The notes: generated by a model not told the origin, from the sequence alone. A stretch of 64,000 nt of DNA from Candidatus Bathyarchaeia archaeon (GCA_049512075.1 JBEKXL010000009.1:27967-91966), one strand, 5' to 3'. Positions 3,119 through 63,513 are shown, counted from the first letter of the stretch. Made by a program: numbers and translations.

Positions 3119-3265
3119 TCTAACGCTTACTGATAAGTGATAAACTACATTTTGAAAGCCAGTTCATGCGCGCGCACACTCACTATCTCCAAAGCTGAAT
3201 GCTATCTAGTCGTGAAAACTAAGCTTCGTTTGTCTTCCGTTTCTTCTGTCCCTGGGGGACATTCC

Positions 3266-3529
3266 TTAATGGGCTTCCTTTCCTTTGACATAATCAACGC
3301 CGAACTTGGAAAGAGACACAACATCTCGACTTTTGCCATGGAAGTCTACATAACCTTTTGAATGAAGGTTTCCAAGAACCGTTGCAAAACTCTTTCTGAT
3401 GCCATACTTCTTCGCGATTGTCTGCCATTTGATGATGGACGCAACCTTCTCAACAGCGTAATAGCTCATCGCGATTATCTTATTGTCAAACATCCGGAAC
3501 AAAATCTCTTCTTCGTAGTCTTTCAGCAT
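3266..3529 (-). CDS. Small winged-helix protein
   Basis: C-terminal wing pattern LHSKGYVD...VVSLSKFG; ATG at 3529 after GGAG. Confidence 0.6.
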   Translation of the reverse strand: MLKDYEEEILFRMFDNKIIAMSYYAVEKVASIIKWQTIAKKYGIRKSFATVLGNLHSKGYVDFHGKSRDVVSLSKFGVDYVKGKEAH

Positions 3530-3676
3530 TTTCTCCTGACTTAGTAGACTTGAGGTACTATATAATAATTTAGTACAACTATGCAACAACGTTTATATAA
3601 CAATACTACCTGTTAGGATATTAATAATAATAAAATAAAATCGATATATCGAAAAACAAGCGGAGGGGGAAAAGTA

Positions 3677-4192
3677 ATGCAATCGAACAGAACGAGCTTT
3701 CCAGAAGCTGTCAAAACAGTACTTGACACGATGGAAAAGAAGAGAACGCTTTCGGTGAATGCCTTATCACACGAAACAGGCCTTAACAGAAGAACAGTAG
3801 AGAAAACTTTGAGGCTTCTTCTAGATGTCCAACCATATTTTCTCCACAGATCCTTGAGACTTGTCGAAATGAACCACTCAAAATTGATAGAGATAAACGA
3901 GAAATCGGGACTGCTTGACCTTCCAGAAAACATACAGAACCTGATAATAAGGACGGTATATTATCCGAACCCTTCAAAAGAAGAAACAATCTTAACCCAC
4001 ATCCTCTTGAAAGAAGCATTTTCACCGGAAAAGGCTATCTCCCTAGAGAAAGATGCGACAGTCCGAAAACTTGTGAAGCAAGGACAAGTTCTGGAAGAGC
4101 GCGCGCTCTTCTATTTGTCTGACGAAGGGAAGATAGTGGCAGAGGGAGCCTTGAAGCTATACCCTGAACTGAAAGAATTAGCCTACGCATAA
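3677..4192 (+). CDS. HTH / winged-helix transcriptional regulator
   Basis: LSVNALSHETGLNRRTVEKTL HTH; second wHTH-like LVKQGQV..FYLSDEG. Confidence 0.7.
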   Translation: MQSNRTSFPEAVKTVLDTMEKKRTLSVNALSHETGLNRRTVEKTLRLLLDVQPYFLHRSLRLVEMNHSKLIEINEKSGLLDLPENIQNLIIRTVYYPNPSKEETILTHILLKEAFSPEKAISLEKDATVRKLVKQGQVLEERALFYLSDEGKIVAEGALKLYPELKELAYA

Positions 4193-4310
4193 CGAGAGGA
4201 CAAACCAACCCCCAGCTATCACTCGCCGAGACCTGCCAAGGAAGAATTTTCTTCCGTAGCCCGCAACAAGCGCATTCACTGCCAAAGCTCGGCGTGCTCA
4301 ACATTCTCAA
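4193..4310 (-). pseudogene. Degenerate Zn-ribbon module paralogous to the N-terminus of 11582-12136
   Basis: PSFGSECACCGLRKKILPWQVSASDSWGLVCP versus PQFGTECVLCKFWRRVLPWQISANGDWGAVCPEC. Confidence 0.55.
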
Positions 4311-4322
4311 GTCGAGTTTCAG

Positions 4323-4598
4323 TCATTCTTGTTCAGTCTCTTGTCCATACATCTGATCATAGGCTGACTCTATTGCAGCCTCTTCCTGGTTTCCTATGTC
4401 CTTGGTTCTGCATTTTTCCTGTCCCAAGCAATCTTTGCAGTATTCAAAGGGCAGGTCTTTGTCATTGGGATTAGCCGACCAACCCGCGTGGCCAAACCAT
4501 TCGCATTCTAGAGGAAGACTTAGCCGGGCTAAGTCGTGCTGTATCTTTGTCTGTGTTGCTTTTCTCTGAGTTTCCTCTTTCTTCATGGTTTTAGGCAA
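4323..4598 (-). CDS. Hypothetical Cys-containing protein
   Basis: Part of a tightly packed minus-strand operon; CKDC motif. Confidence 0.5.
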   Translation of the reverse strand: MPKTMKKEETQRKATQTKIQHDLARLSLPLECEWFGHAGWSANPNDKDLPFEYCKDCLGQEKCRTKDIGNQEEAAIESAYDQMYGQETEQE

Positions 4599-5005: not shown

Positions 5006-5351
5006 TCAGTGCCCTCCAAAGAAGCACGGGTCTGTTCGAGAACTCCCAAGCGCGTGTCGCAGCGGGAGATTTGGGAAGATGTTCCGGGCTTGTCGAAAGC
5101 ATAAACAAGCACCTCCCAGTTTCCGGATTCGAGGCTGAATCGAAGATGTTTGGTGGAGGCATCCCTTTCCCTCCTGCTGAACCGCACGCGCGATTGTTTG
5201 CGGGCGGGGTGGCCTGGGCGGCAAGCCCAACTTCCCGTTTTGCCACTTTGCGTGAACCAATGTCGATAGACAGAAGAAGCCCACTCTCCGCTTCTTTCGC
5301 GCGCGCTGTTTCGCGGCGATACAACATCTCATAAAAACCACGGCAAGGCAT

Positions 5352-5927: not shown

Positions 5928-6486
5928 GCCTCCCGTTTTGGCTGAGTGTGTGAATGGTTGAAGGTAGCAACGCGGGAAACGAGGGTTTGCCCGGAGCCGC
6001 TTCTCTTGGCGCAGCGGCGGAAAAAGCTGTAGGAGAAAGACCTTTCCCAGCCGGTGTGTGCGGCACTGCCTGTTTTCCGAGTTTCAAGGACTGTTCGCTG
6101 TGGCAGACAAAACCTTTCTCGCCCGCTCGTTGCCTCACCGTTGCGCGCGCGCTGAAGGCAGCGGAAATCGAGGGCTTGCCTGGACCCTGTTGGGGCAGAG
6201 ACTGCCCATTCCCAGGCTTAGAAAGTGTTTGAGGAATTGTTTTGTGGCAGAGGCCTTTCTCGTCCACATGCCTTTCAACCTGCACCGTTGAGTCTTGCAG
6301 GATTTCGCCACAATTAGCACAAAAGGAACGCCCTGAGTGTGTGATGAAGCCGTATGCAGCGACCTCGCCTAATCTTCGGCCGCATCGTCGGCAAAGCGTC
6401 GCCCGGTTTCGTGAGCCCACATTCACTTTCAGCATTTCAGTCACTCCTGAGCTTTTCGTCTTGCTCGACGCTGCTCGCGCCGACAA
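5911..6486 (-). CDS. Zn-finger hypothetical protein
   Basis: CRRC...CANC followed by a low-complexity Pro/Ala tail. Confidence 0.45.
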   Translation of the reverse strand: MSARAASSKTKSSGVTEMLKVNVGSRNRATLCRRCGRRLGEVAAYGFITHSGRSFCANCGEILQDSTVQVERHVDEKGLCHKTIPQTLSKPGNGQSLPQQGPGKPSISAAFSARATVRQRAGEKGFVCHSEQSLKLGKQAVPHTPAGKGLSPTAFSAAAPREAAPGKPSFPALLPSTIHTLSQNGRLARDE

Positions 6487-9247
6487 AGTTGGGTTTTTTG
6501 CAGTTTTTAGGCATGGCTACTCTGTGCAGTTTTTCGGGTTTTGTTCCCGCTAGCCTGTTAAGAATGTATTCTGCAGCCTCATCCCTTGCCTTTGGATCCT
6601 TGAACGTGGTTTCGACGTATGAGCTGACTTGCTGTTGAATAATCTCTCTCCACCCGTCAAAAGGAAAGGTCTTCAGGGTTTCGTCAAGAGGCTGTCTTAA
6701 GTCCAACGTGTCAAGAGATTTTTGCTTAACGATTAGGGTTTTCCACTGGTCAACAGCTTTTTGGCCTCCGAACATCGTGAACATCAAGTCTTTAATGTAC
6801 TGGTCAAGGGCTCCGTCTATTCGTTGCTGTGTTTCCACATTGAGAACATCATCGGGAGGTCTGACTTTCCGTTTCGTGCCTTGTGCCTCAATCTTCTTAG
6901 TTATCCAGTTGAGAAACTCTTCAGGAGTGAAGGCGTTAAGTTCGATTCTATAGTGAACTTCGATAGGCTTCAACAAGTCGTCGCCTTTCAAGTGGGTTAG
7001 CGCGAAAAGTTCCTCTTGAGACAGATACTCCAAGACGTTCTTAGGTATCCTCTTAGGCTTTTTCAGCACAACCTTCTCTGGCTTGAACCCAAGCTCCATT
7101 CCTTCCAAAATTGAGAGGCCCAAATCAACAACCTGAATCCGGTTGTCCTTCATTCGTTTACTTTCCCTAGACAAGCCTAAGTATATGCTAGTGCCGAAAA
7201 CATCACCATCATGAACGGCGTATATGGGAATCTGTTCATTCCATTCCTTAGCTGTCTGTTCGATACGGTGTAACAGCCTACGCACCGAAAAAGTGCTTTG
7301 CCCTTGTCCGCCTACCGTAAGTGCGTCTAACTTGTCCTGCAGCCGGTCAGCTCGAACTACGCGTTGAAGACCCTTCTTTTCAAATACCCAAACCTGACCG
7401 TACAGCCATTTAGGTATCTCATAACTTGCCTCACCCTCAGTGCTGAGATAAACAATATTGTCGTTCCGAGGTTCACATAGAATAGAGTTCGCTTGCAACA
7501 GCAAACCGTTAAGATCCACGCCTCTCTTTTTGCACTCGTCAAGAATGAGAGGGAAATACTTGTACTCAGGAGCGAAAGCACTCAGACCTTTCTTTTCAAG
7601 AAGATTGCAGACGGTATAAAATAACATTCTCTGTTCGAAATATGGATATTGGCCGTCGCTCGTTTCATGCTTTTTTGCTTCCTCTATAATCTCATAAACA
7701 GCTTCCATCTGTCCTTCCGGAACCTCAATTTCGCCAGTAGAGTTTCTGAGTAGCTCAAACCGTTTTTTTGCTCTTTTGTAGAATTTGGTTGCTCTGTCGA
7801 TTGTGTCTCCTATGTTGAATACATCAGTGTTTATCTCTGTCTTGCCCGGGTCCTTGTATGGAATGTTCGGACAGGTTATGTGAACGAGTACTGTGACGGG
7901 TTGATCACGTCCAATCCCGTTCTTCTCGCAGACACCTTTGACGCCGGGCCAATCTCGGTTGCGCTCTTGGAAGAAAACGAGTCTGCCGAAGGGGTCTTCC
8001 ATTTTAATGCTCCGGTTCAGGCCGACGTGGATACGTCGCCCAGGTATGCCAGTAACTCCGACGGCCACTTCAAGCACGTACGGAATTTGAACTTCGCTTT
8101 CTCCTTGCCTGAGAATTGAAGTATTCTTGTAGCATTTGTAGACAAAGCTCTTGGCTGAGTTTAATAATCCGTCAATTTCTTCAATTCTATACCCGAGGTT
8201 TGTTCTTCCGATTTTGCCTAGAATGTTCGGGCTTGGAGCATTACACACTTCCTTCATGGCCCTATGGAGTCTAATGATGAGTTCTGGCTTGCCTAGAAGT
8301 TGCTCTTCAAGGCAGTTCTCCATGCTAGCTCTTTTCAGAATTTCCTTGACCTGTTCATCACGGCTTGCCCCCCAAAACTGGCGAATAAAGCTGTCTAGTT
8401 TGAAATGTTCTCCGCGTTCTACGTGATCTCTGACTTGCGTTTCATATCTCTCTACGTACTCGTTTTCGCTGAAATGATGAGGGCTCTCCCTCAGTTCTTT
8501 TGTCTTGGTTCTTGACACGTGACTGTCTGCCACTATGGCTCCTTGGAAAGTGATTCTTGCTTGTGGATTGAAACAGGCGAAGGATTCAATGTCATGCCGA
8601 TAACGTTCTGGGTCGCCCCATTTTTCTCCATAGATAGGCAGAAAAACTATGACGGTTGTGCCGATTCTCTTCTTAATTTCCTGCTGAACAGGCGGAGGGA
8701 CCACAACTTCACCGTTGACGTATTCGCCATGAATTTCGTACCTTGTATTCCCACTCAGGATAAAAATGGGAATTTGCTCTGTCTGCTTCGCATGGAACAG
8801 GGCGAAGTTTGCTCCAATAATGGCTTTCCAAGCGTTTCCCAGCGCGCCTCGGCTCGCATATTTATAGTGAAAACGGCTGCTGTAGAAACGTTTGAAGTCT
8901 CGGATATTGTTGATTTTTTCTTCGTCCATGCCTGATCCGTTGTCGTCAACCTGAAGCATCATGGTCGAGTCATTGCTTTTTTTGACATCGACCGAAACTG
9001 TTGGAGTCCGTAGATTATCGGTTTCGTCACAGATGTCTAAGGCGTTGTCTACGAGTTCCTTGAGTATTAATTTGTCCAAGTTCGCTGGGATTGTTGCAGT
9101 CAGACGTTGTAACCCTTCGAGGCTAAAATAGTCAGCTTCTTTAGTTCTAGGCAACATTCGCCGAGGAACGAAGTCAAGACCATGACTAAGTCCAGGTTTG
9201 ATTGTGTCTGCAAGGGCAGCCATGATGATGCCTCTAAGTTCCCTCAC
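6437..9247 (-). CDS. Fused type IIB topoisomerase (Top6B-like GHKL ATPase + Top6A/Spo11-like WHD-TOPRIM), topoisomerase VIII-like
   Basis: GHKL boxes ELVDNALD, DDNGSG, SRGALGNAWK, GTTV; putative catalytic Tyr in QRMLFY; TOPRIM VFEKKG and HDGD; RIELNAF. Confidence 0.85.
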   Translation of the reverse strand: MRELRGIIMAALADTIKPGLSHGLDFVPRRMLPRTKEADYFSLEGLQRLTATIPANLDKLILKELVDNALDICDETDNLRTPTVSVDVKKSNDSTMMLQVDDNGSGMDEEKINNIRDFKRFYSSRFHYKYASRGALGNAWKAIIGANFALFHAKQTEQIPIFILSGNTRYEIHGEYVNGEVVVPPPVQQEIKKRIGTTVIVFLPIYGEKWGDPERYRHDIESFACFNPQARITFQGAIVADSHVSRTKTKELRESPHHFSENEYVERYETQVRDHVERGEHFKLDSFIRQFWGASRDEQVKEILKRASMENCLEEQLLGKPELIIRLHRAMKEVCNAPSPNILGKIGRTNLGYRIEEIDGLLNSAKSFVYKCYKNTSILRQGESEVQIPYVLEVAVGVTGIPGRRIHVGLNRSIKMEDPFGRLVFFQERNRDWPGVKGVCEKNGIGRDQPVTVLVHITCPNIPYKDPGKTEINTDVFNIGDTIDRATKFYKRAKKRFELLRNSTGEIEVPEGQMEAVYEIIEEAKKHETSDGQYPYFEQRMLFYTVCNLLEKKGLSAFAPEYKYFPLILDECKKRGVDLNGLLLQANSILCEPRNDNIVYLSTEGEASYEIPKWLYGQVWVFEKKGLQRVVRADRLQDKLDALTVGGQGQSTFSVRRLLHRIEQTAKEWNEQIPIYAVHDGDVFGTSIYLGLSRESKRMKDNRIQVVDLGLSILEGMELGFKPEKVVLKKPKRIPKNVLEYLSQEELFALTHLKGDDLLKPIEVHYRIELNAFTPEEFLNWITKKIEAQGTKRKVRPPDDVLNVETQQRIDGALDQYIKDLMFTMFGGQKAVDQWKTLIVKQKSLDTLDLRQPLDETLKTFPFDGWREIIQQQVSSYVETTFKDPKARDEAAEYILNRLAGTKPEKLHRVAMPKNCKKPNFVGASSVEQDEKLRSD

Positions 9248-9546
9248 TCAATGGGCCGGGTTTCCTGCGCCCTTGCCTCAGCCTCCCGTGAAAGCTCCGT
9301 CTGCTCGCCGTCGACTTCGTGCGCGCGCGCTTCTGTTTTCTGCTGCATTTCCAAGGCATGCTCGAAGTCGGCCAACAAAATTCTGAGAGATTTTACGATG
9401 TCGGCCAATGATGCTTTTTCTGGGTAGACGACAGCTGAGACTCGGTTACCTACAAGTTTCAAATTGAGCCCAAGGGCGTCGACGACTTCACGTGGAATAT
9501 AGGCCACGTGCTGTTTCTCGTTGATTTTTATTTCAAACTCAACCAT
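9244..9546 (-). CDS. AbrB/MazE-like DNA-binding protein, overlapping the topoisomerase start
   Basis: EIKINEKQHVAYIPREVVDALG swapped-hairpin pattern; 4-bp overlap with 6437-9247. Confidence 0.6.
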   Translation of the reverse strand: MVEFEIKINEKQHVAYIPREVVDALGLNLKLVGNRVSAVVYPEKASLADIVKSLRILLADFEHALEMQQKTEARAHEVDGEQTELSREAEARAQETRPIE

Positions 9547-11157: not shown

Positions 11158-11293
11158 CTTTAGACTTGATTACTAGCGCGCGCTACTAACTAACTATTAA
11201 CTACTCATTTGACATATTTAAAGTTTATTTTTGACACATCAATGTGTCATGCATTCACAACGCTTAAATCCACAGGAAAGAGAAGGAAAGTTG

Positions 11294-41148: not shown

Positions 41149-41303
41149 ATGCGCGCTATTTTGCAATAAATTATGCATGATCTGACTACTATGATAGGCG
41201 CTTTCTTCGCTCTCTGGATTCAACACAAATAACTTAACAGTATCCAGTGTCCGTACTCCATATAAGATTCAAGTGGACCTAATTCTCGTTGAGGAGCGGC
41301 TTC

Positions 41304-50692: not shown

Positions 50693-50756
50693 TAAATTAA
50701 ACTTTGATTAAGCTAGCAGCGCTGAAAGAGTTATTTCTAGACTGAAAGAAGAGTTT

Positions 50757-51062: not shown

Positions 51063-51131
51063 TGCCTTTCGAACGGCATTTGAAAGAAAAAGGGATTTAT
51101 CCCTTGTTTTACATTTTAAGAAGAGGATTCA

Positions 51132-52046
51132 ATGAGCAAAGCTAAAAGTTACTTTGGAAAAGCTTTCTATCATATTTTCAAGTACTTTGTATGTCCTTTC
51201 TTGACCATTCTAGGTGTCATGTTTCTTCTTTTGGTTTCTCTTAATTTCCTTTCAGAAAATCCCGCTAACACCGACTATTTGTTTCTTGTTGAATTAAGTT
51301 CGATTCTTTCGCTCTTGGTCGCAATACCGCTTTTTCTAATAGAGAGTATGACCTTACTTCCACCTGCCTTAAGAAGAAATGAAAGAATAAATCTTCTTTT
51401 TGAACAGCATTTTCCTAGGATAGGGCGAATTTCGATTAAAACGAGAATTGAACTGAAACCCTATTTGCTTGCACTCGCCTTAAGTTCGTTTTCCATATTT
51501 ATCGCTGTTATGATTAAAGCTAACCAGACAAATACTTCTCTTAAGTTCCCTTCGTTGGATTTCTGGATATTCTTTGTCTCTTACATGGGTTTACCCTTAT
51601 TTTTTGTCACATATTTGAGGCTCTACAATAAAGAAGAAAAAGCCATATTTCTTCTTGACAGATTCTTCCGAAGAATTGATTTTTGTCTGAACGAACCTAG
51701 AAGTGGACTGAGTGCCGTTGATTTTGAAAATGCATTGAAGTCGTATCAGAAAACTCTACCTTCTTTCTATTCTCTAAATAATCTGAAAGAAAGAGTAAGA
51801 CAGGTACAGTTGATTCTTGACAGGGGGACAAGAGATGAAATTACAAAAATGCAATACCTTGTGTTTTCTCTGTCTAGTTCGATAAAGATGCACGATGCCC
51901 CCTCCTTCGACAATCATTTCCAAGAATTGTGCCAATTTTTGGAACAGAAAGAAAATGAAGAAAGGAACGTACTCACAATCAGTCAGTCAAACAAAGATAG
52001 GTTGCTGATTCAGGAGCTGCCGCGGCTTGGTCAGGAGTTGACCTAA
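51132..52046 (+). CDS. AT-rich 4-TM membrane protein, C-terminus possibly truncated
   Basis: Four hydrophobic helices; abrupt compositional switch near 52000. Confidence 0.65.
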   Translation: MSKAKSYFGKAFYHIFKYFVCPFLTILGVMFLLLVSLNFLSENPANTDYLFLVELSSILSLLVAIPLFLIESMTLLPPALRRNERINLLFEQHFPRIGRISIKTRIELKPYLLALALSSFSIFIAVMIKANQTNTSLKFPSLDFWIFFVSYMGLPLFFVTYLRLYNKEEKAIFLLDRFFRRIDFCLNEPRSGLSAVDFENALKSYQKTLPSFYSLNNLKERVRQVQLILDRGTRDEITKMQYLVFSLSSSIKMHDAPSFDNHFQELCQFLEQKENEERNVLTISQSNKDRLLIQELPRLGQELT

Positions 52047-52216
52047 CTTCCCATTGTGCCGCTTTGCCAAGTGTGCATGAGAAGGTGGAAGAGCAGTTTC
52101 TCCATCGGCCTTTTTGGACATTGAATATGGTTCACCTCTCTACGTAATCTCTGAAAATCTTCAGGTTACTCAAACGCGCGCGCTAAACCATTGCTCATAA
52201 ATGGAAAAATCGACGG

Positions 52217-53068
52217 TTAATGGCTAATTCCTGCTAGTAAACCAATTACCATAGAGTATGATTTTACGCATAAGAGAACTGCACATCCGATAACTACGGA
52301 AGGAGAATTCCGAGAGTTCTTTAAAACCTTTTGGAAAGTTAACAATGCATATTCAGGTATCGCTGGAAAAATCTGCTGTTTAGTTTGCTGTACAAAGACA
52401 GGCATGGACTTTCCATAACGAAGATTTTTGATCAAGGCATCTCTGATAGACGTAAGCTCATAATGGTAAATTTTGGATTTACATTCGGCTTCTCTAACAT
52501 TTGCTTTCTTTAGTTTTCTGTAAAGGTCATAATCTTCTCCCCAAAGCAGGGAATTATCAAGCATCCCTACATGAGTTATTTCTTCTTTGATAAAAAAGCG
52601 TGGCTCGTTATGGATTATGTCTCTTCTATCTCCATATAGTCGCGCAACCTCTTCGAAACAGTTTTTCCATGCAGCAGAACAAGAGCTCCAGAAACCTTTT
52701 CCAATGAAAACTTCGGGAATTACTACCATCCCAATCTTTTCATTCTTGCATCTTTCAACACACTCTTTAACAACTGTCGGCGACAGAACCTGATCGGAAT
52801 CTAGAAAAAGCACGTATTTGCCAGCTGAATTATCTACCCCGATATTTCTAGCCTGAGCCGGATTACATTTTTGCTGTATTGTTTTAGCACCAAGGTTCTT
52901 CGCCATTTCTAAAGTGTTATCGTTACTGAAATTATCAACAACTATGACCTCATATAAAGGATAGTCTTGACCCTGAATACTCCTAAGACATTCTTCAATG
53001 GTTTCTCCAGAGTTGTTAGTGGGTATTATTATTGATACACGCGACTTTTCCAAACTCTCCTCCATCAA
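52217..53068 (-). CDS. GT2 glycosyltransferase
   Basis: VSIIIPT, EVIVVDNFSND, ARNIG, LFLDSD, GEDYDL. Confidence 0.92.
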   Translation of the reverse strand: MMEESLEKSRVSIIIPTNNSGETIEECLRSIQGQDYPLYEVIVVDNFSNDNTLEMAKNLGAKTIQQKCNPAQARNIGVDNSAGKYVLFLDSDQVLSPTVVKECVERCKNEKIGMVVIPEVFIGKGFWSSCSAAWKNCFEEVARLYGDRRDIIHNEPRFFIKEEITHVGMLDNSLLWGEDYDLYRKLKKANVREAECKSKIYHYELTSIRDALIKNLRYGKSMPVFVQQTKQQIFPAIPEYALLTFQKVLKNSRNSPSVVIGCAVLLCVKSYSMVIGLLAGISH

Positions 53069-53069
53069 T

Positions 53070-55598
53070 TTACCCCAAAGGTGTAGAAGTGATCGTAATA
53101 TTGCCTACGTAAGCAACGTTCGGAATGCCATCAAAATCCAAGTTCACAAGTTCCAAGATCAAGGTGCTAGGCAAGGATGAATCGAACATTTGACGCCAGC
53201 ACGCGCTTAAACTGTAAGGACCAAAGGCGCCTTCTGAACTACCCAATGGAATGGTATTCGTGTAATTCTCATATACACTGTTTGGAGTCGCAATTATCAT
53301 AGACTGGTTACGGTAAACATTGGATACAAAGACTGCAAAAGTGTCTTTGCCATGAAAGCCCTCAGTTGCGTTTAAATAGAAAGAAAGGGTGACATCTGAA
53401 TTGTTTTGCACATAAATTTCTCTAGAAACATACTGCCCATACATCCATTCCAATGGGTCAGGTATGACTTGAGCTGTTATTTTCAAGCATCTCCCTGAAT
53501 TGCCTCCGGAGTTAGTTGCTATCGTAACGTTTGACACCCCATTGCCAAAAGCGTAACTTTGCCATCCATCATCGTACCAATCTGCATGTTCGAAATTATC
53601 TTGAAAAACAATGTTTGAATTCGTATAATTGAATTGGAAGAGGTAAGCATCACTAAAGTTTTTCACTAACTCAAAGTTTGGATTGCCAAGAAACAGTTCA
53701 GGATTCCACTGATGTTCTGAATTATCAAAGGGGCTAACTCCTGATCCCACGTAAATGTCTGTTATGTTGAAGTGTTTCATCAAATCCATAGCCGTTACAT
53801 TTAGACTGTTTTGCTCCAGTAAGGTTTGAAGCTCTTGGTAGGAGACAGAATAAGAACTAGCAAAATCAGGATAGATAACCTTGCGATTTGCAAGGCTTGG
53901 TATGAAAGTTCCGCTCTGATAGTTATTGACCAATATTGTAGCGTTTTTAGCTAGATTTTCTTTAATCCACATCATTAACTGAAGATCTTGCTCTGTTGTC
54001 GCAGCAAAAACAGCGTAACTGCCATGGATCCCTCCGACGTCAAGAACTATGCTTTGATACAAGAAAGGAGAATAGATTCCAACGAGCAACATAACTGAAA
54101 TTGCAGAAACTAGAAGTTTCCTTGACTTAAGTTTGGTCTCATCTGTCTTTGCTAGAATTTTTCTGGATAAATAGGAAGAGAAAAGGTAGAACAAGTAAAA
54201 ATTAGCGGCCGCAATGAAGAAATAAAGAAGAAAATACAGGAACAATGGATTGCTGTAAAATGGCAAATTTACGTAGTCAATTGCGGCAAGGAGAAAAATG
54301 AGTGACTCTCCTAGAAACGAGGCTATTCCTAACTTGATAAGCCAACTTGCCCCACTGAAAGATTTATCCTTTCGAAAATGTACCGCAAGTAAAACGCTCA
54401 CAAAAAATAGAGCGAGTGAAGCGATTGTTAGCAACATATTGCTGCCAGCCAAATTATCAAAAAGCCATACGGCGTTAGTCTGGAAAATAGAAAGGGTGGG
54501 ATGAGCAAGCGGAATCTGTATGTCAAGCGCAACCCCTACGTTATGATCAGGAGACTGATACCAAATTAATGTCCTGTAGAGAAATGGGCTCAGAACTAGA
54601 AGGCTTAGACCAAAAATCAATGCAAGACTTAACAATCTGCCCCATGCACCCTCACGCCTTTTTATTGCGGTATACAGCCACACCACGAACAAAGTGCCAA
54701 TTAACATTTCATAAACCTCAAGATGTAAGACCGCCAAATAGCCAAAAAGAAAACCAATCGCCAAGATTGTCCCTACGTTCAATTTTTCCTTTGTTAAAAA
54801 TGGGAAAAGACTTAAACAGACAAAAAACAACGGAAAACTAGCAATCATCGCGTTGCTTCCCCACGTAAGATATTTCGGCCAAAAGGCCACAAAAGCAAAC
54901 ACGAACGCCAAACTTAAGCCCACGTATCCCTTCCTAGACAACGATAATGTCTTGCCCAGGAAATAGACGCCTAGTATCGTAAAGGCATTAAAAAAGGCCG
55001 TTAAGTAAAAAACAGCCTCAGGAGGAGAATAATTTGAGATCAACACAGAGTAGGCAACCATCGGAGTAAAACCTTGCGGATAAACGATCCCCTCACTCAA
55101 ATAAGGCTGCAAAGTCATTGGTACTTGTTTATTCTTCAGAAGAACCTGAACAAAAAGCGAGTGCATGGAAGTATCACGGATGCTTCCGAAAATAAGACCG
55201 TTAAGCGCCAAAGTTTGTACAACAAGACCAAACAAGAAAATCAATACAATCAGCAGCAAGGGTTCAGAGAACAGATGGTTTCTGAACGAAAACCTCTTAA
55301 GATTTAACCGTAGGTTTCGGGCAACACTCCTGAGTCCTTCTCTATAAAACCATAAGACAATCAGAGTTGACACTAAGGTGATTGCATACAACACATATGC
55401 GGAAAAAAGATGTAAAGGAATAATAGCGATAATATACAACAAAAAACCGCCGAGATAAACATCGAGTACCAATATCTGCAGAACATCTAAATTCTTAAAG
55501 ACATCAACGAATTTTCGAAGGCCAAGTCTCCACGGTTCACCTAATATAAAGAAACAGAACATAAAGAACAAAAGCTGAAGAATCACTTCAACGAGCAT
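53070..55598 (-). CDS. Multi-pass membrane protein, GT-C-like (DUF6541-type)
   Basis: Many TM helices, DTSMH..YPQGF..WG pattern, extracellular C-terminal domain. Confidence 0.7.
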   Translation of the reverse strand: MLVEVILQLLFFMFCFFILGEPWRLGLRKFVDVFKNLDVLQILVLDVYLGGFLLYIIAIIPLHLFSAYVLYAITLVSTLIVLWFYREGLRSVARNLRLNLKRFSFRNHLFSEPLLLIVLIFLFGLVVQTLALNGLIFGSIRDTSMHSLFVQVLLKNKQVPMTLQPYLSEGIVYPQGFTPMVAYSVLISNYSPPEAVFYLTAFFNAFTILGVYFLGKTLSLSRKGYVGLSLAFVFAFVAFWPKYLTWGSNAMIASFPLFFVCLSLFPFLTKEKLNVGTILAIGFLFGYLAVLHLEVYEMLIGTLFVVWLYTAIKRREGAWGRLLSLALIFGLSLLVLSPFLYRTLIWYQSPDHNVGVALDIQIPLAHPTLSIFQTNAVWLFDNLAGSNMLLTIASLALFFVSVLLAVHFRKDKSFSGASWLIKLGIASFLGESLIFLLAAIDYVNLPFYSNPLFLYFLLYFFIAAANFYLFYLFSSYLSRKILAKTDETKLKSRKLLVSAISVMLLVGIYSPFLYQSIVLDVGGIHGSYAVFAATTEQDLQLMMWIKENLAKNATILVNNYQSGTFIPSLANRKVIYPDFASSYSVSYQELQTLLEQNSLNVTAMDLMKHFNITDIYVGSGVSPFDNSEHQWNPELFLGNPNFELVKNFSDAYLFQFNYTNSNIVFQDNFEHADWYDDGWQSYAFGNGVSNVTIATNSGGNSGRCLKITAQVIPDPLEWMYGQYVSREIYVQNNSDVTLSFYLNATEGFHGKDTFAVFVSNVYRNQSMIIATPNSVYENYTNTIPLGSSEGAFGPYSLSACWRQMFDSSLPSTLILELVNLDFDGIPNVAYVGNITITSTPLG

Positions 55599-55728
55599 TG
55601 AAACTTAGTTCTCCACAACACACACGTTATAAAAATGACTTATCTATAACCTTTTTCCTTAATAACAGAGGGGTGCGTAATAAACGTATAGCACGTATAA
55701 CAGAATCCGAGCATACTTATTCAGGCTT

Positions 55729-56358
55729 ATGAACGCAAGAGTCGGGACTGAAATTGAAAGGATGAAATATTTTTCCTCGTTCATCTCCAATTATGACTCT
55801 AGTTTTCTTCTCGATTTAGGTTGCGGAAAAGGATTGCTTTTTGATAATATCGTCGGTTCTGACGAATCTGAGCTAGTGGGTGTTGACCTAATAAAGAATC
55901 GCAAAGAGAATTATCATCATGTTGTTGCATCGGCAATAAGGCTACCCTTCAAGAATAATGCTTTTTCTTTGGTGACAGCTTTCAGCATTTTAGAGCATAT
56001 TCCCAAAGCCGAAAGGAAGGTGTTCTATAAAGAAGCGAAGAGAGTGCTAAGAGGCAAAGGAATATTCGCAATTCAATTACCAAACAGATACTTTATCATT
56101 GAAAGCCACACGTACTTTCCCTTTTTTGGTTTCCTTCCCTCTCGTATACATTCATTTGCTTATAGAGGAGGATATGTTGCAGTACCTTCCTTAAAAAATG
56201 TCATTCACTCCTTGAAAGGATCTGGTTTCGAGGTATTTAATGTTAAAAAATATGAGGCCCCATTTTTGCCTTTTGGATATTTTCTCGGTAAAATTGGCCT
56301 TTTTCATCTATTTCCTATGGGATATATCATATGTGCACGATTAGTAAAAGGAGGCTAG
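55729..56358 (+). CDS. Class I SAM-dependent methyltransferase
   Basis: LLDLGCGKG, LPFKNNAF, ILEHI, RVLRGKG, PNRYF.IE.H. Confidence 0.9.
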   Translation: MNARVGTEIERMKYFSSFISNYDSSFLLDLGCGKGLLFDNIVGSDESELVGVDLIKNRKENYHHVVASAIRLPFKNNAFSLVTAFSILEHIPKAERKVFYKEAKRVLRGKGIFAIQLPNRYFIIESHTYFPFFGFLPSRIHSFAYRGGYVAVPSLKNVIHSLKGSGFEVFNVKKYEAPFLPFGYFLGKIGLFHLFPMGYIICARLVKGG

Positions 56359-56812
56359 CGCGCGCGCTTTGGGTTTGGGATGAAACTCTACCCTCCAACC
56401 TTGGCAAGCACGTTCTCATTCAGAACGAGACCTGTGAATAGGTAGTTCCAGTTAATTTTTTGAGACATGAAAGTAGCTCTTGTTAGGAGACACGTATGCG
56501 CTGGCACCATACACCCAGCTGACCGTTGAAATCAGAACAAGCGTAGGTGCAGCCCTGATGATCATGAGAGAGATGCCCGGTAGCTTGCCCCCAGACTCGA
56601 TCGTCGACCTCGGCTGATTAACTGTAATACACGCCCCTCGATTTCTAAACAAGACTGTTATGAAACCAAAATCCATGTCGAAATATGCAGCACCGTTCAG
56701 TCCAAGACACGTTTAATGCGTGAACATGCTGCCTTTCTGTTTCTTGAACTGTTCAGAGAATCTGTCGCTTCTTTGTTCCATTTCGGACTTCTTCCGTTAA
56801 GAACAAACTCGT

Positions 56813-57418
56813 CTAACCCCTCACTTTCTCTCGGACCGAGTTCACGTCTTCGGTCGTTACCTCGTCCGCAACAATCTTCAATTTATGGTTAGCAATAAAA
56901 ACGTCCGGCATATATTGCCCGATCTTCTCATTGAACTTCACCTCACCATTGTTTGACCAGAAGATCGTCGTGATTTTCTTCACGCTCTGCTCATGTACAG
57001 CCTGGCCAGTTCTGGCCTCGCCAAGCTCTTCCAACTGAACCCTGAGCGGGTCACGCTCAAGCTCATCTGACTTCTGTCTCAAACTCTTCATCTCTTCGCG
57101 CATTAATGCGTGATCTTTCTGCTCAAGCAACTTGAATGATGACTCAAGCCGTTCAGTTATGCTGGCCAACTGTCTTGCGGCCTGTCTGTACACGTCAGCA
57201 TCTTTGTCCGCAAGCTCTCTGAACGTATTCGCGGTCGTCTCACTCATCTTCTCGTAGGTCTCTCGTAGTAAATCTATTGCACCTTGGAGCTTCTGGGAGT
57301 ATTCGCCGTAAAGGCTCTCACGTATCTCTCTGGAGTCAGTGTCCTGTTTGTTTCTGATTCCTTCAATTTTCCCCTCAAGACTTTGAAGATATCTCGTCCT
57401 TTCTTCAAGTGTAGCCAA
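56813..57418 (-). pseudogene. Fragment of a coiled-coil protein with a possible PD-(D/E)xK tail
   Basis: Long coiled coil, YMPDVFI..DEV; appears cut at both ends. Confidence 0.45.
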
Positions 57419-57505
57419 CTGTGTTAAGACCTTGGCAGCGTCATCCTTTGGCTGGGAGAGTCTCCAGTGAAATGCTTGCGACGGTAGATGTAAAATGATA
57501 CTCCA

Positions 57506-57814
57506 ATGACTGCAGGCTTTAGTGGAAAAGACACCTTTGCTGCCATTGTCTCAAATCTCTACGGCAACCAAACTTTCGTGTTTACAACTCCAAACGGTAT
57601 TTACGAGAACTACAACAATTCGAGATCTTTGACAGTATCTGAAGGCTTCTTCGAGTTCAAGGGTAACAGCAGCCTGAGCACTCTTTGGCGTCAAGCATAT
57701 GGTTCAGCCCTACCGAATCCTTTCATTCTGGAGTTTGTGAACTGGGATTTTGACGGCAACCAAAACGTTGCTTATCTTGGCAACGTGACGGTTACAACGA
57801 CGCCTACTGGATGA
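57506..57814 (+). pseudogene. Fragment paralogous to the C-terminal domain of 53070-55598
   Basis: GFSGKDTFAAIVSNLYGNQ..TPNGIYENY..LEFVNWDFDG versus GFHGKDTFAVFVSNVYRNQ..TPNSVYENY..LELVNLDFDG. Confidence 0.75.
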
Positions 57815-61213: not shown

Positions 61214-61996
61214 CGTTGAGAATGTACACTAACTCACGGTGGCTTCTTTAAGCTTTTTCAAGCAGCGTCAATTCTCATTACAAGAAAACCGAGTGTTCTT
61301 TTGAAGCCTTTTTCCGATTTAGCGCTGGTTTCCCTTTGTTGTGGCCGTTTCCTTTGGATGTCTAATGCCTCAGCTTGCGCTTCCTGCTGCGCCTGTCTCT
61401 CTTGACTGGAGGTTGTTTATGAATCCAAAATTAGACTCCCTGAACCTGGAGGAACTGGTTTTTATGGTCTATTTGATAAAACCTTTGTATAATAAACCGA
61501 GAGATGTAGATGAGTAGGCCAAAAGGTACAGTGGAAAGAACGTAGAACTCTAACAAAGATCCAATACCATCCTTCGCGATCATCTGCAAAAAGAAGATTC
61601 CATAACTCATTGTTTTACCGTCACGGAAATGAAACTTACACTAGTTTCGTCTCTTCACATTCATTACGACAAGTGCAGACAGGAAAAAGGTGAGGCCAAA
61701 CAGGATTGCATTGAACAAGCAATAAGAACGACTGCTAGAACGACTAATGGAACCCCAACTGAAATCGCTACTTTGCTTATCATGTGGTTACTTCAGGTTC
61801 TCTAATGGGTTAATAATGCAGAAATCCCAATATTACTTTTCGGTTGTTGTCTTGTACGGAGTAGCGCGCACGCTAATGCTCATGCGCATGCCCAAGAGAA
61901 ATAAAAGCCCAGGGCGACGGTGATTTATCGGTTCTTGCTATATTCCCCCATTCGAAATAACCATTGATTGTTCCTGAGGAAGATTCAGGTTGTGCG

Positions 61997-62224
61997 ATGA
62001 AAATGGTGAACTGTCCACACTGTGGCATGCCCTTAGTTAGAGATAGCAAATGTAGATATTTCTGCGAAAATGAAGGATGCCCAGTTGTGTTTGTGCACGC
62101 CCCCCATAACCCGTTTGGAAGGAAAGTGGCTTTCGCGTCTTCCGCAACGGGGGAAACAGTTAGAAAGACTCAAGAAGTTATGAGGGCAAGAAATCTCACT
62201 AATTTAGTCACTTCAGCTTCCTAG
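61997..62224 (+). CDS. Small Zn-ribbon protein
   Basis: CPHC...CENEGC. Confidence 0.55.
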   Translation: MKMVNCPHCGMPLVRDSKCRYFCENEGCPVVFVHAPHNPFGRKVAFASSATGETVRKTQEVMRARNLTNLVTSAS

Positions 62225-62438
62225 AAAGACAGTGGAACAAACTTTTAGTACACGTCAAAATTGCAGAAACATTACAAGAAGCATGTAAACTGTTGGAAAT
62301 AGGCTTTGAATAAATCGCGGACAGGGATGGAAAGAAACTGTTTAGAAAGAGAAAGTAACTGTCGATTTTATCCTTCAGGATCTCATTTTATAAGTCTTAA
62401 ATAGGATGGTGCGCCATGTTTCTGTTGAGGAATCTGTC

Positions 62439-62849
62439 TTGGGATACGACTATGAGGAGTTGTTGAAGAGGGCGCGTTCCCAGTTTCCAGAGATAGGTGT
62501 GAAGAGCGAGCGTTTAGAGATTCCTAGGTTGCACTATGCGAGAATAGGAATGCGCACAGTGATTTACAATTTTAAGGAAGTTGCTGACGCTTTGGATCGT
62601 GATCCACAGCACATGCTGAAGTTTTTGACTGGTGAGATGGCTACGGCCGCGACCGTGCAGGGGTCAAGGGTCATTTTTCAGGGGAAGTTTTCAGAAGACA
62701 CTTTTGGAAGGCTCATACACAGGTACTTGGAGAGTTACGTAGTATGTCCCGTTTGCAAGCGTCCGGACACGAAGATAGTGAAGGAGAAACGTCTGTCGTT
62801 TTTGGTGTGCCAAGCGTGTGGAGCAAGATCGTCGATTAAGCAACTTTGA
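62439..62849 (+). CDS. eif2b: Translation initiation factor aIF-2 beta subunit
   Basis: YEELLKRA, NFKEVADALDRDP, CPVCKRPDT..CQACGA. Confidence 0.95.
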   Translation: MGYDYEELLKRARSQFPEIGVKSERLEIPRLHYARIGMRTVIYNFKEVADALDRDPQHMLKFLTGEMATAATVQGSRVIFQGKFSEDTFGRLIHRYLESYVVCPVCKRPDTKIVKEKRLSFLVCQACGARSSIKQL

Positions 62850-63160
62850 GAGCGTCTTCAATATTGGAAGTGTACGTGAACATCAAAAAAATCGGCAGAA
62901 ACGTGTTGCTAGCCATATGCGACGTTGAAATCTTGGGGAGGACGCTGCGGGAGGGGAACATAGTCTTCTGCGTCAAAGAAGACTTTTACAAAGGCGCAAG
63001 AGTAGACGTCGAAGAAGCAGTGCCTATGATCGAAAACTCCAACATCGTGAACATGGTGGGCAGAAACGTCGTAAAGAAGGCGATAGAGAAGGGCTACGTT
63101 CATCCAGAAGCGGTTCTTAAAATAGAAGGGATACCGCACGCCCAAATCGTAAGACTTTGA
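62846..63160 (+). CDS. DUF424 family protein
   Basis: LLAICD.EILG, FYKG, VNMVG, IEGIPHAQ. Confidence 0.9.
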   Translation: MRASSILEVYVNIKKIGRNVLLAICDVEILGRTLREGNIVFCVKEDFYKGARVDVEEAVPMIENSNIVNMVGRNVVKKAIEKGYVHPEAVLKIEGIPHAQIVRL

Positions 63161-63513
63161 CCACACTGTTTTTCCGTGTAAGATCATACTGTTATTGTTT
63201 TCGCCTCTTAGAGTATTGTAGTGCACCCGCTATTACATCCATCGAAGCCAGCAAAGTGATGACCAAGGTAGCGTGGTTGAACTCGGCGCGCGCGCCAGCA
63301 GATGCTCGGAAAATCGCCCTTTTCTCACTACAGGCATAAGTCGTAATACTGTGGCCGTTCGCGGACGTTTGTACGAGCTTATTTGGGTTCAGCGTCGGCC
63401 GAGTCTGGCTTCTGAGTTAGTAGATGCTCTCCTGATTTTGCCTTGTCTTGGCGAACATAGTTTTAAAAGGAAGAAGTATACTTCTTTTAGGCAACTGCGT
63501 CCGGGGTGCTTGG

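Follow-up and report, generated by a model that had tools for sequence, protein, structure and literature searches.

A short alternating GC palindrome at IS5-family transposon ends and at indel junctions in a Bathyarchaeia genus

Results

The motif and its setting in the window

The window analysed here is the whole of a 64,000-nucleotide stretch from a Candidatus Bathyarchaeia archaeon (GCA_049512075.1, JBEKXL010000009.1:27967–91966). It contains 15 perfect (GC)4–5 sites, each at the position given in an earlier note on this DNA, and its features are as follows (coordinates count from the first letter of the window; a strand is given where there is one).

952–1124, + strand: MITE-B, with related ends (TAGCGTGTTGCTAAATT) and a decayed GC run on either side (GCGCGTGC at 952–959, GCGCAC at 1119–1124)
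3122–36527: 33.4 kb integrated element, absent in genomes G002, G003 and G004, bounded by a repeat (AAGCCACTA / AAACCACTAG)
3168–3175: solo GCGCGCGC within the 33.4 kb element, 47 bp from its left att junction
4099–4106: solo GCGCGCGC inside the integrated element, in short ORFs
5299–5306: solo GCGCGCGC inside the integrated element
6143–6152: solo (GC)5
9321–9330: solo (GC)5
11176–11183: solo TA-GCGCGCGC-TA in a divergent intergenic region
17388–17395: solo GCGCGCGC
19508–19515: solo GCGCGCGC
27530–27539: solo (GC)5
28410–28419: solo (GC)5
35117–35124: solo GCGCGCGC, 55 bp downstream of the integrase gene
35172–36461, − strand: tyrosine integrase (Phage_integrase, E 8e-11) at the right end of the 33.4 kb element
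39114–40392, + strand: IS110-family element (DEDD_Tnp_IS110 and Transposase_20), missing on its own in runs X6 and X9
40993–41000: left GC run (8 nt) beside MITE-A
41001–41150, + strand: MITE-A core, 150 bp, with ends TAGCGTGTTCCTAAATTC and the reverse complement of ATGCCTGTTCCTAAATTC
41151–41156: right GCGCGC hexamer beside MITE-A
48438–48447: decayed motif GCGCGCGTGC; the segment replaced in G002 has its left end 34 bp away
48551–51365: 2815 bp segment that cuts into two long ORFs, replaced by AGCGCGCGC in one run X5 contig
52176–52183: solo GCGCGCGC, an empty allele of 8 nt
56358–56367: solo (GC)5 overlapping the stop codon of ORF 55729–56358
63286–63295: solo (GC)5

Homology to contig C6 of G003 stops at 56352, next to the (GC)5 at 56358.

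Counted as overlapping 8-mers, the window has 21 matches versus 0.57 ± 0.74 in 100 dinucleotide-preserving shuffles, none of which (0/100) reaches 21; with one mismatch permitted there are 63 matches versus 14.9 expected. The near-matches listed earlier are a mixed set: those at 952, 48438 and 61864 are one-mismatch variants, those at 1584 and 41151 are GCGCGC hexamers only, and that at 63876 exceeds one mismatch. The gene pyrG (36900–38594) indeed lacks any perfect site, and the flanking TA is real, A occupying position −1 in 59% and T position −2 in 36% of flanks genome-wide.

A role of the motif as the border of foreign modules fails for the large islands of the window, which end at integrase or IS110 repeats and not at the motif. 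The 33.4 kb element contains 11 of the 15 window sites, yet the motif closest to its att end lies 47 bp inside. The 2.1 kb insertion at 39112–41231 is bounded by a 10-bp direct repeat, CCAGTGTCCG, and the IS110-family element within it is not associated with the motif. Among the gaps listed, out of 56 chained gaps between G000 (the genome that holds the window) and G002, about 12 are clean large insertions with direct repeats of their own and no motif. The motif as an att or island-border repeat was rejected because the window islands have other direct repeats. Contigs of run X9 depart from the window at 35172 and 35208, and the departing part has GC runs.

An over-represented intergenic unit of eight nucleotides

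G000 (2.73 Mb, 47.5% GC) has 547 (GC)4–5 sites. GCGCGCGC is its most over-represented 8-mer, about 20-fold, and ranks first by z-score at orders 1 and 3. The excess withstands the lower-order Markov models on which the earlier note had made it depend, with 1292 occurrences on both strands versus 56, 60, 63 and 89 expected at orders 0–3; at order 4 and above the sub-words of the motif itself raise the expectation. The unit measures 8 nt and usually reads A-GCGCGCGC-T, with the consensus tA-GCGCGCGC-Ta, and palindromy does not extend further than ±1 from the 8-mer. Of maximal alternating runs there are 284 of 8 nt, 186 of 9, 105 of 10 and only 6 (either phase) of 11 or more; in GC phase there are 4615 runs at 4 nt, 451 at 6, 250 at 8 and 90 at 10. 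GCGCGC hexamers that are not part of a longer run show no enrichment (646 versus ~670 from the order-3 expectation). That these runs are simply a dinucleotide microsatellite or an effect of composition, with no particular process behind them, is hardly credible. A few run-length differences of 1 or 2 nt between G000 and G002 are of the kind a microsatellite would produce, but the length distribution is bimodal, with a second mode at 8–10 nt and a sharp stop, (GC)5 lies below its order 6–8 Markov expectation, changes are mostly whole-unit indels or substitutions, and most related genera have 0–14 matches at similar genome size.

With genes called crudely as greedy ORFs of at least 100 aa, 438 of the 547 sites are intergenic, a density of 0.80 per kb versus 0.047 per kb in genes. 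Selection may be the cause, the motif being kept out of genes because an 8–10 nt insertion or the landing of a transposon would be selected against there. Density is roughly equal in divergent, tandem and convergent spacers, and sites have no preferred distance to gene starts or ends. In the comparison of G000 with its 94%-identical sister G002, retention is 14 of 34 for the G000 sites and 14 of 26 for those of G002, similar to controls (57.8% of non-coding 8-mers, 45.7% of GC-rich ones).

Alternating GC is the classical Z-DNA former, and the run could itself be a selected intergenic element, either a Z-DNA-forming or torsion-absorbing stretch or the site of a lineage-specific protein, whose structure transposons merely prefer. 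The strict intergenic bias, defined length, A/T flanks and even density across spacer types fit such a role. We nonetheless think it very unlikely: the sites keep no distance to gene ends, are conserved no better than controls, occur at deletion junctions within former genes, and have six times the density in DNA specific to a strain (0.387 per kb in the part of G002 that does not align to G000 versus 0.066 per kb where it aligns).

The label HIP1-like, proposed in the earlier note, invites a second selective or mutational explanation. PMC5861425 describes HIPs as GC-rich palindromic octamers, 15- to 300-fold over-represented. GCGCGCGC has over-representation of this order (1292 versus 56–89 expected), and HIP1 itself (GCGATCGC) is not enriched in this genome (30 observed versus 30–72 expected). 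As in the cyanobacterial HIP1 and alternate HIPs described in Elhai 2015 (PMC4390886) and Xu, Lawrence and Durand 2018 (PMC5861425), the top octamer is ~20-fold over-represented and lineage-specific and has a core with weaker flank preference. The octamer might thus be made or kept by methylation-dependent biased mismatch repair, or selected for nucleoid or chromosome structure, with the transposon and breakpoint associations secondary, models of a kind put forward in PMC4390886 and PMC5861425. One-off variants are biased towards transitions (enriched 2.3- to 2.75-fold, transversions 1.0- to 2.1-fold), as would result if a methylated CpG-rich site decayed or were repaired towards consensus. 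HIP1 is also found at rearrangement junctions, a further likeness. We give this explanation very little weight, and the label fails, because the motif is mostly intergenic and is retained at the control level, and no C5 methyltransferase was found in the genus (PF00145 had no match over the cut-off in G000–G004). N4/N6 methyltransferases (PF01555) occur in 28 of 31 relatives and hence do not track the motif, and methyltransferase specificity is not readable from sequence. Unlike HIP1, moreover, the motif differs between genomes by indels in about half of the changes and appears to serve a transposon family as its insertion site.

An IS5-family transposon and its MITEs between GC hexamers

Both window MITEs adjoin a GC-run motif, as had been noted, and they have a common ...TGT..CTAAAT core. 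The claim of a gene cut at 40993 is not borne out; the MITE is inserted at this site, and a 188-aa Mrr-like ORF starts 8 bp downstream of it. Nine near-full-length copies of MITE-A are present in G000 plus 731 kb of G002. A 348-aa ORF at C39:6585–7631 has DDE_Tnp_1 (E 5e-12) and DUF772 domains and lies in an element with inverted ends. This combination of a DDE_Tnp_1 transposase between terminal inverted repeats with shorter non-autonomous copies that share them is that of the IS5 family, so the enzyme that the earlier note left unnamed can now be given at least one family, the IS5-family DDE transposase with its MITEs.

Ends of the IS5-like element read GCGCGC-TGSCTTGTCCCTAAATT and those of the MITEs GCGCGC-TAGCGTGTTSCTAAATT. 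We found 132 such ends in G000, and the elements always lie between two GCGCGC hexamers; the hexamer is intact at 122 ends, with a tip run of exactly 6 nt in 101 of the 122. Outside the hexamer, 94 of 131 ends have A at −1 and 78 have T at −2, but of 9 young MITE-A copies only 3 are flanked by TA left and right, which indicates that the outer TA is no duplication and that any duplication lies inside the GC run. Just inside the hexamers the bases vary from one sub-family to the next and, within a single MITE, from one end to the other (TAG, TGG, ATG, CAG); GCGCGC is invariant.

Empty-site alleles with a single motif copy, envisaged in the earlier note, exist at three loci, where the element-free allele is a solo (GC)4–5. 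At the first, G002 has flank-GCGCGC-[~415 bp MITE]-GCGCGC-flank and G000 has flank-(GC)5-flank. The other two involve strain alleles taken from assembled contigs of metagenome runs: MITE-A in the window lies between runs of 8 and 6 nt, and runs X6 and X9 lack the MITE and have (GC)5 (joint 40996->41151); the window's 8-nt solo at 52176 corresponds to a filled allele in run X5 with 6+6 nt and an IS5-type end (...GGGACAAGGCA) that adjoins 52178, a second contig ending at 52181. Filled minus empty GC-run length is 2, 4 and 4 nt in the three pairs, so the apparent duplication is not constant.

The reading we prefer, to which we give roughly even chances, is that the motif in this genus is both a specific insertion site for IS5-family transposons and MITEs, with a duplication of ~4 bp, and a recurrent indel junction. 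An element would enter the middle of a GC run and duplicate ~4 bp (GCGC), such that each copy would come to lie between two GCGCGC hexamers and the element-free allele would be one run of 8–10 nt. The hexamers would then be target duplication and not transposon tips, and the duplication probably 4 bp long, although in a palindromic repeat of this kind duplication and tip look the same in sequence.

Transposon tips are normally the best-conserved bases, and an invariant GCGCGC beside three variable bases, even within one MITE, speaks against an insertion site and fits the hexamer as the true tip, with solos as scars of excision. On this alternative, which is possible though we doubt it, solos are products and not targets: an element or a two-element composite is cut out, and 4–5 bases of each tip remain (GCGC+GCGC) after end joining. 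The GC runs, 8–10 nt in element-free and 12–14 nt in filled alleles, agree with it. Footprints of Tc1/mariner, hAT and PIF/Harbinger in eukaryotes are likewise small palindromic insertions, in which the last bases of the two inverted repeats stay behind where the element had been, and they vary in length by a few bases; unlike these, the sites here show no flanking target duplication outside the hexamers, as the MITE-A copies illustrate, and a recognisable transposon end adjoins only 17 of the 547 sites. To our knowledge, excision footprints have not been established for prokaryotic IS5-family elements, nor DDE transposon footprints in archaea. PMC11708052 describes the IS5 family as moving both conservatively and replicatively, with adjacent deletions common for IS903, which would favour excision.

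Breakpoints, indels and segment replacement between strains

Homology breakpoints between related genomes are enriched at the motif, in agreement with the earlier note: a site is no more than 15 bp away for 22 of 186 and 24 of 188 block ends, versus 3.64% of random intergenic positions (binomial p 1e-6 and 1e-7). DNA is also inserted and deleted there, as had been supposed. In the comparison with G002, which covered 731 kb or about a third of that genome, 7 of 39 indels of 8–12 nt consist of the motif, clean motif insertions of 6 to 19 nt occur at naive sites, and G000 has GCGCGCGC-109 bp-GCGCGC versus a single GCGCGC in G002. Only 3 of the 547 sites have a paralogous alignment that crosses the motif, and 160 share flank similarity with other sites. 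A bare motif stands in place of segments of 2815 bp and 835 bp in other strains, and also of one of ~265 bp; the ends of these segments have no GC run in the other genome. A 270-bp non-transposon module could be aligned at 5 unrelated loci, its homology beginning and ending exactly at GCGCGCGC.

With the motif as insertion site and junction, strain insertions, deletions and segment replacements would start and stop at the GC run because it is abundant, GC-rich, self-complementary microhomology as well as a transposase target. Use as a target does not explain the origin of solos, however, since these appear at naive sites and in place of segments whose ends have no GC run. On the excision model, clean small insertions of varied length and junction insertions resemble footprints and filler DNA, and the 270-bp module is bounded as if GC runs were minimal ends; yet resection over kilobases should remove the tip remnants first, and a deletion plus a footprint needs several steps. 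A more speculative idea, which we consider improbable, is that several Bathyarchaeia lineages have a putative activity that writes a self-complementary tag, A(GC)4T, into breaks, sealing deletions and simple breaks; tagged ends would anneal, and the tag would serve as an IS5-type landing pad and as a portable end for arbitrary segments. If true, this would amount to a 'junction adaptor' system, defined by its sequence and serving genome plasticity, for which no counterpart has been described. Whatever writes it, the solo (GC)4–5 palindrome is best explained as a short junction element, unstable over evolution, in DNA that is intergenic or accessory.

Distribution among relatives

The motif is lineage-specific, as claimed, being abundant in 5 of 5 genomes of the genus and patchy elsewhere. 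Sites of the same kind in five independent genus assemblies and in contigs of other metagenome runs rule out an assembly artefact, a possibility the earlier note had raised, and G000 and G002 have 14 sites in common at orthologous positions. Outside the genus, and in favour of the insertion-site reading, G018 has 24 solo sites of the same habit in 124 kb, 22 of them intergenic, and G024 has 11 in 240 kb; neither the transposon-end pattern nor the transposase was matched in these two. Co-occurrence of motif and transposon rests essentially on one genus and is therefore phylogenetically confounded.

The same comparison bears on excision and end joining. G000 encodes a complete Ku / LigD primase-polymerase / ligase-phosphoesterase operon, and Ku is found in 4 of 31 relatives, three of which (G000, G002 and G004) have the top motif counts. 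On the other side, G003 has 253 motif matches yet only 4 transposon ends and no Ku match, and in G018 and G024 solos occur where neither this transposon nor Ku was found.

Discussion

The earlier interpretation stands as to lineage specificity, breakpoints, empty sites and insertion/deletion; likeness to HIP1, the borders of large islands and the cut gene at 40993 have been given up. For the preferred reading, that the motif is an IS5/MITE insertion site and junction, the closest precedents are REP-targeting insertion sequences such as IS1397 and IS621. In both cases the targets of a transposon family are palindromes scattered between genes, so that genes are spared, and filled and empty alleles differ by the element and a few duplicated bases. 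Unlike REP targets, the site here is an 8–10 nt pure alternating GC run with no stem-loop. PMC11708052 also mentions insertion of IS481 into a REP sequence. Spread in the manner of REP/BIME by RAYT was rejected, as there is no 20–40 nt hairpin palindrome and no RAYT-like enzyme tracks the motif: Y1_Tnp is present in 4 of 31 relatives (G000, G001, G002 and G014) and was not found in the motif-rich G003, G004, G018 and G024.

A second parallel is with the GC clusters of yeast and fungal mitochondria, which Wu and Hao 2015 (PMC4478555) describe as mobile palindromes of ~30–50 nt (GC42 being 42 nt) in AT-rich organelle genomes. These too are short intergenic GC-rich palindromes, sporadic in distribution, with fast turnover, presence/absence polymorphism and a role in recombination; the motif differs in its unit of 8–10 nt, in its setting in an archaeal chromosome of 47.5% GC and in its tie to a DDE transposon.

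Abundance, form and placement of the motif

The earlier note had counted 15 runs of GCGCGCGC or longer in the window, and each of them was found at its position. The window (G000:C9:27967-91966, on contig C9 of genome G000) holds 21 overlapping GCGCGCGC matches, compared with 0.57 ± 0.74 expected from 100 dinucleotide-preserving shuffles, the highest of which stayed below 21. The whole G000 assembly (2,725,246 bp, 86 contigs, 47.5% GC) contains 547 runs, or ~13 per 64 kb. Counted on both strands, GCGCGCGC occurs 1292 times versus 56, 60, 63 and 89 expected from Markov models of orders 0, 1, 2 and 3, and it is the top 8-mer of the genome (z 160 at order 1, 127 at order 3); the excess thus persists once lower-order words are modelled. 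Expectation climbs at order 4 and above solely because the sub-words consist of the motif itself. In non-coding DNA the order-3 expectation (198) is inflated by the motif's own 4-mers, so we left the observed/expected ratio there unused.

Maximal alternating G/C runs in G000 fall from 4615 at 4 nt to 451 in GC phase at 6 nt, and number 250 GC-phase and 34 CG-phase at 8 nt, 186 at 9 nt, 90 and 15 (GC-phase and CG-phase) at 10 nt and only 6 at 11 nt or more; the (GC)5 count lies under its order 6-8 expectation. Hexamers not part of longer runs (646) are near the ~670 expected at order 3 and run lengths peak again at 8-10 nt, which indicates that the unit of the motif is the 8-mer. The same distribution contradicts a growing microsatellite. 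Runs are preceded by A at -1 in 59% of cases, with T symmetric on the far side, and carry T at -2 in 36%; no extended palindromy of the flanks was found past ±1. In 1.2 Mb of G003, another genome of the genus, there are 127 sites (82 runs of 8 nt, 35 of 9 nt, 9 of 10 nt and 1 of 11 nt), and A is the -1 base in 64%. Among one-off variants of the motif, transitions are enriched 2.3- to 2.75-fold and transversions 1.0- to 2.1-fold, which fits decay of perfect copies.

Using crude gene calls (greedy non-overlapping ORFs of at least 100 aa; n=2444, 79.9% of the genome), 438 of the 547 sites are intergenic, 102 coding and 7 lie across a boundary, corresponding to densities of 0.80 per kb in intergenic and 0.047 per kb in coding DNA. 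Coding sites are spread over all three frames (45, 31, 26), and spacer orientation makes little difference to density, at 0.70 sites per kb in divergent, 0.79 in tandem and 1.08 in convergent spacers. With these crude calls we found no preferred distance from gene starts or stops. The sites cluster, with 104 spacings of 20-300 bp versus ~27 expected under a uniform model.

Among 30 relatives, the other four genomes of the genus have 168, 460, 253 and 447 motif matches (G000 has 646), and other genera mostly 0-14, with G018 (227), G024 (53) and G013 (30) as exceptions. G024 carries 11 runs within 240 kb, of which 8 are intergenic. G018, from another genus and with 41% GC, has 24 alternating runs of 8-13 nt in both phases within 124 kb; 22 of the 24 are intergenic, with A/T flanks and without the IS5-type ends of the window's genus. 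The source genome is a Bathyarchaeia MAG; matches to the window's pyrG, at 88% identity or less, are to Bathyarchaeia records throughout, with Bathycorpusculum at 76-77%.

Structural variation at the motif

Comparison with the nearest sister genome, G002, covered 731 kb (one third of that genome), of which 488 kb could be aligned to G000, forming 96 blocks; blocks of at least 1 kb have a mean identity of 94.3%. The association with synteny breakpoints anticipated in the earlier note is borne out: of the block ends, 186 in G000 and 188 in G002, 22 and 24 respectively fall no more than 15 bp from a site, frequently at distance 0, versus 3.64% of random intergenic positions and 0.66% of positions drawn at random from the whole genome (binomial p ~1e-6 for G000 and ~1e-7 for G002); 77% of all block ends are intergenic. 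The motif sits at an edge of 15 of 114 alignment gaps of at least 5 nt, and 7 of 39 gaps of 8-12 nt consist of it; clean motif-made insertions of 8, 10, 10, 11, 12, 12 and 19 nt occur in otherwise collinear DNA, and one paralogue pair has GC in one member and GCGCGCGC in the other. Within G000, 160 of the 547 sites have flank similarity to other sites, yet a paralogous alignment crosses the motif at only 3, and alignments end at exact motif edges at 22-24 per bp versus ~1 per bp nearby. G002 DNA without an alignment to G000 is rich in sites (95 in 245 kb, 0.387 per kb) compared with aligned DNA (32 in 486 kb, 0.066 per kb). For the outgroup G003 (about half of the genome), an alignment spanning the site was obtained at only 3 of 42 sites; the motif is absent at two polymorphic sites and present at one common to G000 and G002.

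The earlier note had taken the motif as a mark of foreign-module borders. This does not hold for island borders in general. The motif is enriched inside accessory DNA and at some junctions that are smaller or complex, within the window those at 40993, 52176, 56358 and near 35117. Homology to G003:C6 ends at 56352, beside the 56358 site. Window 3122-36527, a 33.4 kb integrated element beside pyrG that is absent from G002, G003 and G004, is bounded by the repeat AAGCCACTA / AAACCACTAG with an att core of ~9 bp; the 3168 site is 47 bp inward of its left end, and the element holds 11 of the 15 window sites. Window 39112-41231, bounded by CCAGTGTCCG, is a composite of an IS110 element (39114-40392), a single-copy Mrr-like ORF and the MITE we call MITE-A. 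In G002, 2.4 kb stand in place of window 48398-57514, with a perfect motif at neither end. By visual reading of those listed among 56 chained G000/G002 gaps, at least about a dozen are clean large insertions with their own direct repeats and without the motif.

Features of the 33.4 kb element:
35172-36461, tyrosine integrase, at the right end
6437-9247, minus strand, 936-aa ORF with GHKL ATPase, Topo VI-B transducer and Topo VI-A/Spo11 Toprim domains

The domains of the 936-aa ORF suggest a topoisomerase VI-like fusion protein on a mobile element. The larger ORFs of the element are mostly without a Pfam match. The IS110-family element was rejected as motif-linked, as its insertion has its own repeat and lacks the motif; strains differ in whether they carry it (metagenome runs X6 and X9 show the joint 39113->40393), and this variation is independent of the adjoining Mrr-like gene and MITE.

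Filled and empty alleles of an IS5-type transposon

Both MITEs of the window have common ends, GCGCGC-TAGCGTGTTSCTAAATT, and a longer element in G000 has ends GCGCGC-TGSCTTGTCCCTAAATT; its DDE_Tnp_1 + DUF772 protein places it in the IS5 family.

Transposon features:
window 952-1124, MITE-B
window, between GC runs 40993-41000 and 41151-41156, MITE-A
G000 C39:6538-7658, 1.1 kb IS5-type element encoding a 348-aa DDE_Tnp_1 + DUF772 protein

A broad pattern finds 132 transposon ends in G000, 122 with an intact hexamer, where the flanking GC run is 6 nt at 101, 7 nt at 7, 8 nt at 11 and longer at 3. Outside this run, A occupies -1 at 94 of 131 ends and T occupies -2 at 78 of 131. Only 17 of the 547 sites adjoin a recognised transposon end. 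A stricter pattern gives 71, 36, 35, 4 and 25 matches in G000 to G004 respectively and none outside the genus (G018, G013 and G024 included) except in G007 (1), G022 (1) and G026 (8). Co-occurrence of motif and transposon is based on one genus. Transposase homologues at 83-100% identity are present in G000, G001, G003 and G004; the best in G002 has 44%, and six other genomes have only distant homologues (23-44%).

Empty-site alleles with a single motif copy, which the earlier note had suggested looking for, exist as three filled/empty pairs. At the first locus, G002 (C1) reads flank-GCGCGC-[~415 bp IS5-type MITE]-GCGCGC-flank and G000 (C14) flank-GCGCGCGCGC-flank; this clean case was obtained by chaining blocks, strict empty-site searches for MITEs between G000 and G002 having yielded one complex case among 13 elements and none of 53 in a second search. 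At the second, contigs of X6 and X9 join 40996 to 41151 and so read (GC)5, in contrast to the 8 nt, MITE-A and 6 nt of the window. At the third, window 52176, one contig of run X5 stops at 52181 and another begins at 52178 after ...GGGACAAGGCA, an IS5-type end, which indicates a filled allele of 6+6 nt versus the solo 8-mer (a run without transposon) of the window. Filled and empty GC-run lengths therefore differ by 2, 4 and 4 nt. Target duplication in the IS5 group is 4 bp. TA is found on both sides of only 3 of 9 young MITE-A copies, and thus the TA outside the hexamers cannot be the duplication. Strain evidence here comes from assembled metagenome contigs, which lose rare variants, and concerns the parts of the window with contig cover; 14 public metagenomes contain 50% or more of the words sampled from a 9.9-kb window stretch.

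These alleles suggest that the solo run may be a specific landing site. An IS5-type element would land in a solo (GC)4-5 run, its insertion would duplicate bases within the GC run itself, and the run would also act as a recurrent junction of indels; judged from sequence comparison, this is the best-supported reading, and we consider it about equally likely to be right or wrong. Insertion sequences that target REP sequences are known. Solo runs might instead be leftovers of departed transposons. The hexamer is invariant while the inner bases vary, solos emerge as small variable insertions and at deletion junctions, and G000 has a complete operon of Ku, LigD primase-polymerase and ligase-phosphoesterase, Ku being present in only 4 of 31 relatives, 3 of them genomes with top motif counts. 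We nevertheless regard leftovers as less probable and favour a target because of the 4-nt filled/empty differences at 2 of 3 loci, the discordant TA flanks of MITE-A copies, and the presence of solos in G003, G018 and G024, genomes with few or none of these elements. Neither the target nor the leftovers explain the first writing of the 8-mer at naive sites. A landing site would make a testable case of a transposon family restricted to a tiny intergenic target, and would account for the tolerance of an uncultured archaeon for >100 transposon ends.

Motif in place of longer DNA

In run X5, window 48551-51365 (2815 bp) is replaced by AGCGCGCGC. The ends of this segment in the window are without a GC run and lie within ORFs of 363 and 304 aa, so that the short form, on this sequence evidence, looks derived and the motif newly arisen at the junction. 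G002 has GCGCGCGC exactly at the place of 835 bp in G000, and a ~21-nt stretch with CGCGCGCG versus ~280 bp of open CxxC-encoding frame in G000; at another place, G000 has GCGCGCGC-109 bp-GCGCGC versus one GCGCGC in G002. One locus can thus hold a solo motif, a transposon-split motif, or the motif instead of kilobases of genes, and these allelic states are traceable in public peat and sediment metagenomes. The motif is a simple sequence marker of structural variation in Bathyarchaeia genomes and of contig breaks in assemblies. If a dedicated activity does write it at breaks, this would amount to a DNA-repair or mobility signature of a new kind.

Upstream of pyrG, 198 bp (window 36677-36876) are replaced in X6 and X9 by 40 nt whose first bases are related to (GC)5: in X6 GCACGCGTGC, which is perfectly palindromic and two symmetric transitions away from (GC)5, and in X9 GCATGCGTGC; these may reflect strand-symmetric decay of (GC)5. 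A 270-bp module without inverted repeats also occurs, and in five aligned loci its homology begins and stops exactly at GCGCGCGC on both sides.

Copies of the 270-bp module in G000:
C13:8732-9011
C6:79187-79457
C8:6408-6686
C26:22422-22700
C3:152456-152730

One end of the module is the last ~25 codons of dockerin-type genes (DVDGNGEVSLPDLTILALYHGQHY), without an upstream ORF; intact dockerin genes (C2:63003, C2:64172, C4:148021, C19:28613) have AACGCCAACGCG at the place matching the module edge.

Conservation and candidate enzymes

Within G000/G002 blocks, 14 sites are common and 9 more were too close to block edges for scoring; 20 are G000-only (11 by substitution, 9 by indel) and 12 G002-only (6 and 6). 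Retention (14 of 34 in G000, 14 of 26 in G002) is no better than that of control 8-mers in aligned non-coding DNA (57.8%; GC-rich ones 45.7%), so the motif is without sign of conservation. This, together with the lack of a C5 methyltransferase (no PF00145 match above cut-off in the five genomes of the genus, versus matches in 9 of 14 control genomes) and of any enrichment of HIP1 (GCGATCGC; 30 observed, 30-72 expected in G000), contradicts the HIP1-like behaviour proposed in the earlier note. As to the methyltransferase co-occurrence that the note had envisaged, neither C5 nor N4/N6 families follow the motif, and N4/N6 enzymes, in 28 of 31 relatives, have no power to discriminate. In cyanobacteria, hyper-abundant octamer palindromes were recognised about thirty years ago, and we know of no agreed function for them. 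The present motif is an archaeal counterpart with concrete allelic states. A limited literature look-up found no prior description of it, and the terms archaea, GCGCGC and intergenic are all absent from Elhai 2015.

Ku, Y1_Tnp, and C5 and N4/N6 methyltransferases were rejected as motif-tracking genes, their distributions failing to match that of the motif; Ku was not found in G001, G003 or G018. The Mrr-like nuclease beside 40993 is single copy in G000 and was set aside as the motif's enzyme. The end-joining operon of G000 (C16:5124-8191) is complete and of bacterial type, with a LigD primase-polymerase (280 aa), Ku (270 aa) and an ATP-dependent ligase fused to LigD 3'-phosphoesterase (467 aa); the Ku-positive genomes among 31 related ones are G000, G002, G004 and G010.

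Other repeats and gene families

A 188-aa family (8 members) was also considered as motif-linked and rejected: it consists of TBP paralogues, with the motif within 700 bp at only 4 of 9 loci.

TBP paralogues in G000:
C1:104877-105440, and eight more loci on C36, C32, C4, C27, C21, C34, C3 and C39

These eight to nine 188-aa proteins (Pfam TBP, E 6e-61; mutual identity 62-100%) form a family that is unusually large for an archaeon other than haloarchaea. An abundant intergenic repeat at window 1680-1860, with 77 BLAST matches across G000, is built of units in which an A-rich and a G-rich stretch come after ACATTACATCTGACATTACAA, frequently in tandem pairs; TGTAATGT/ACATTACA ranks among the over-represented 8-mers.
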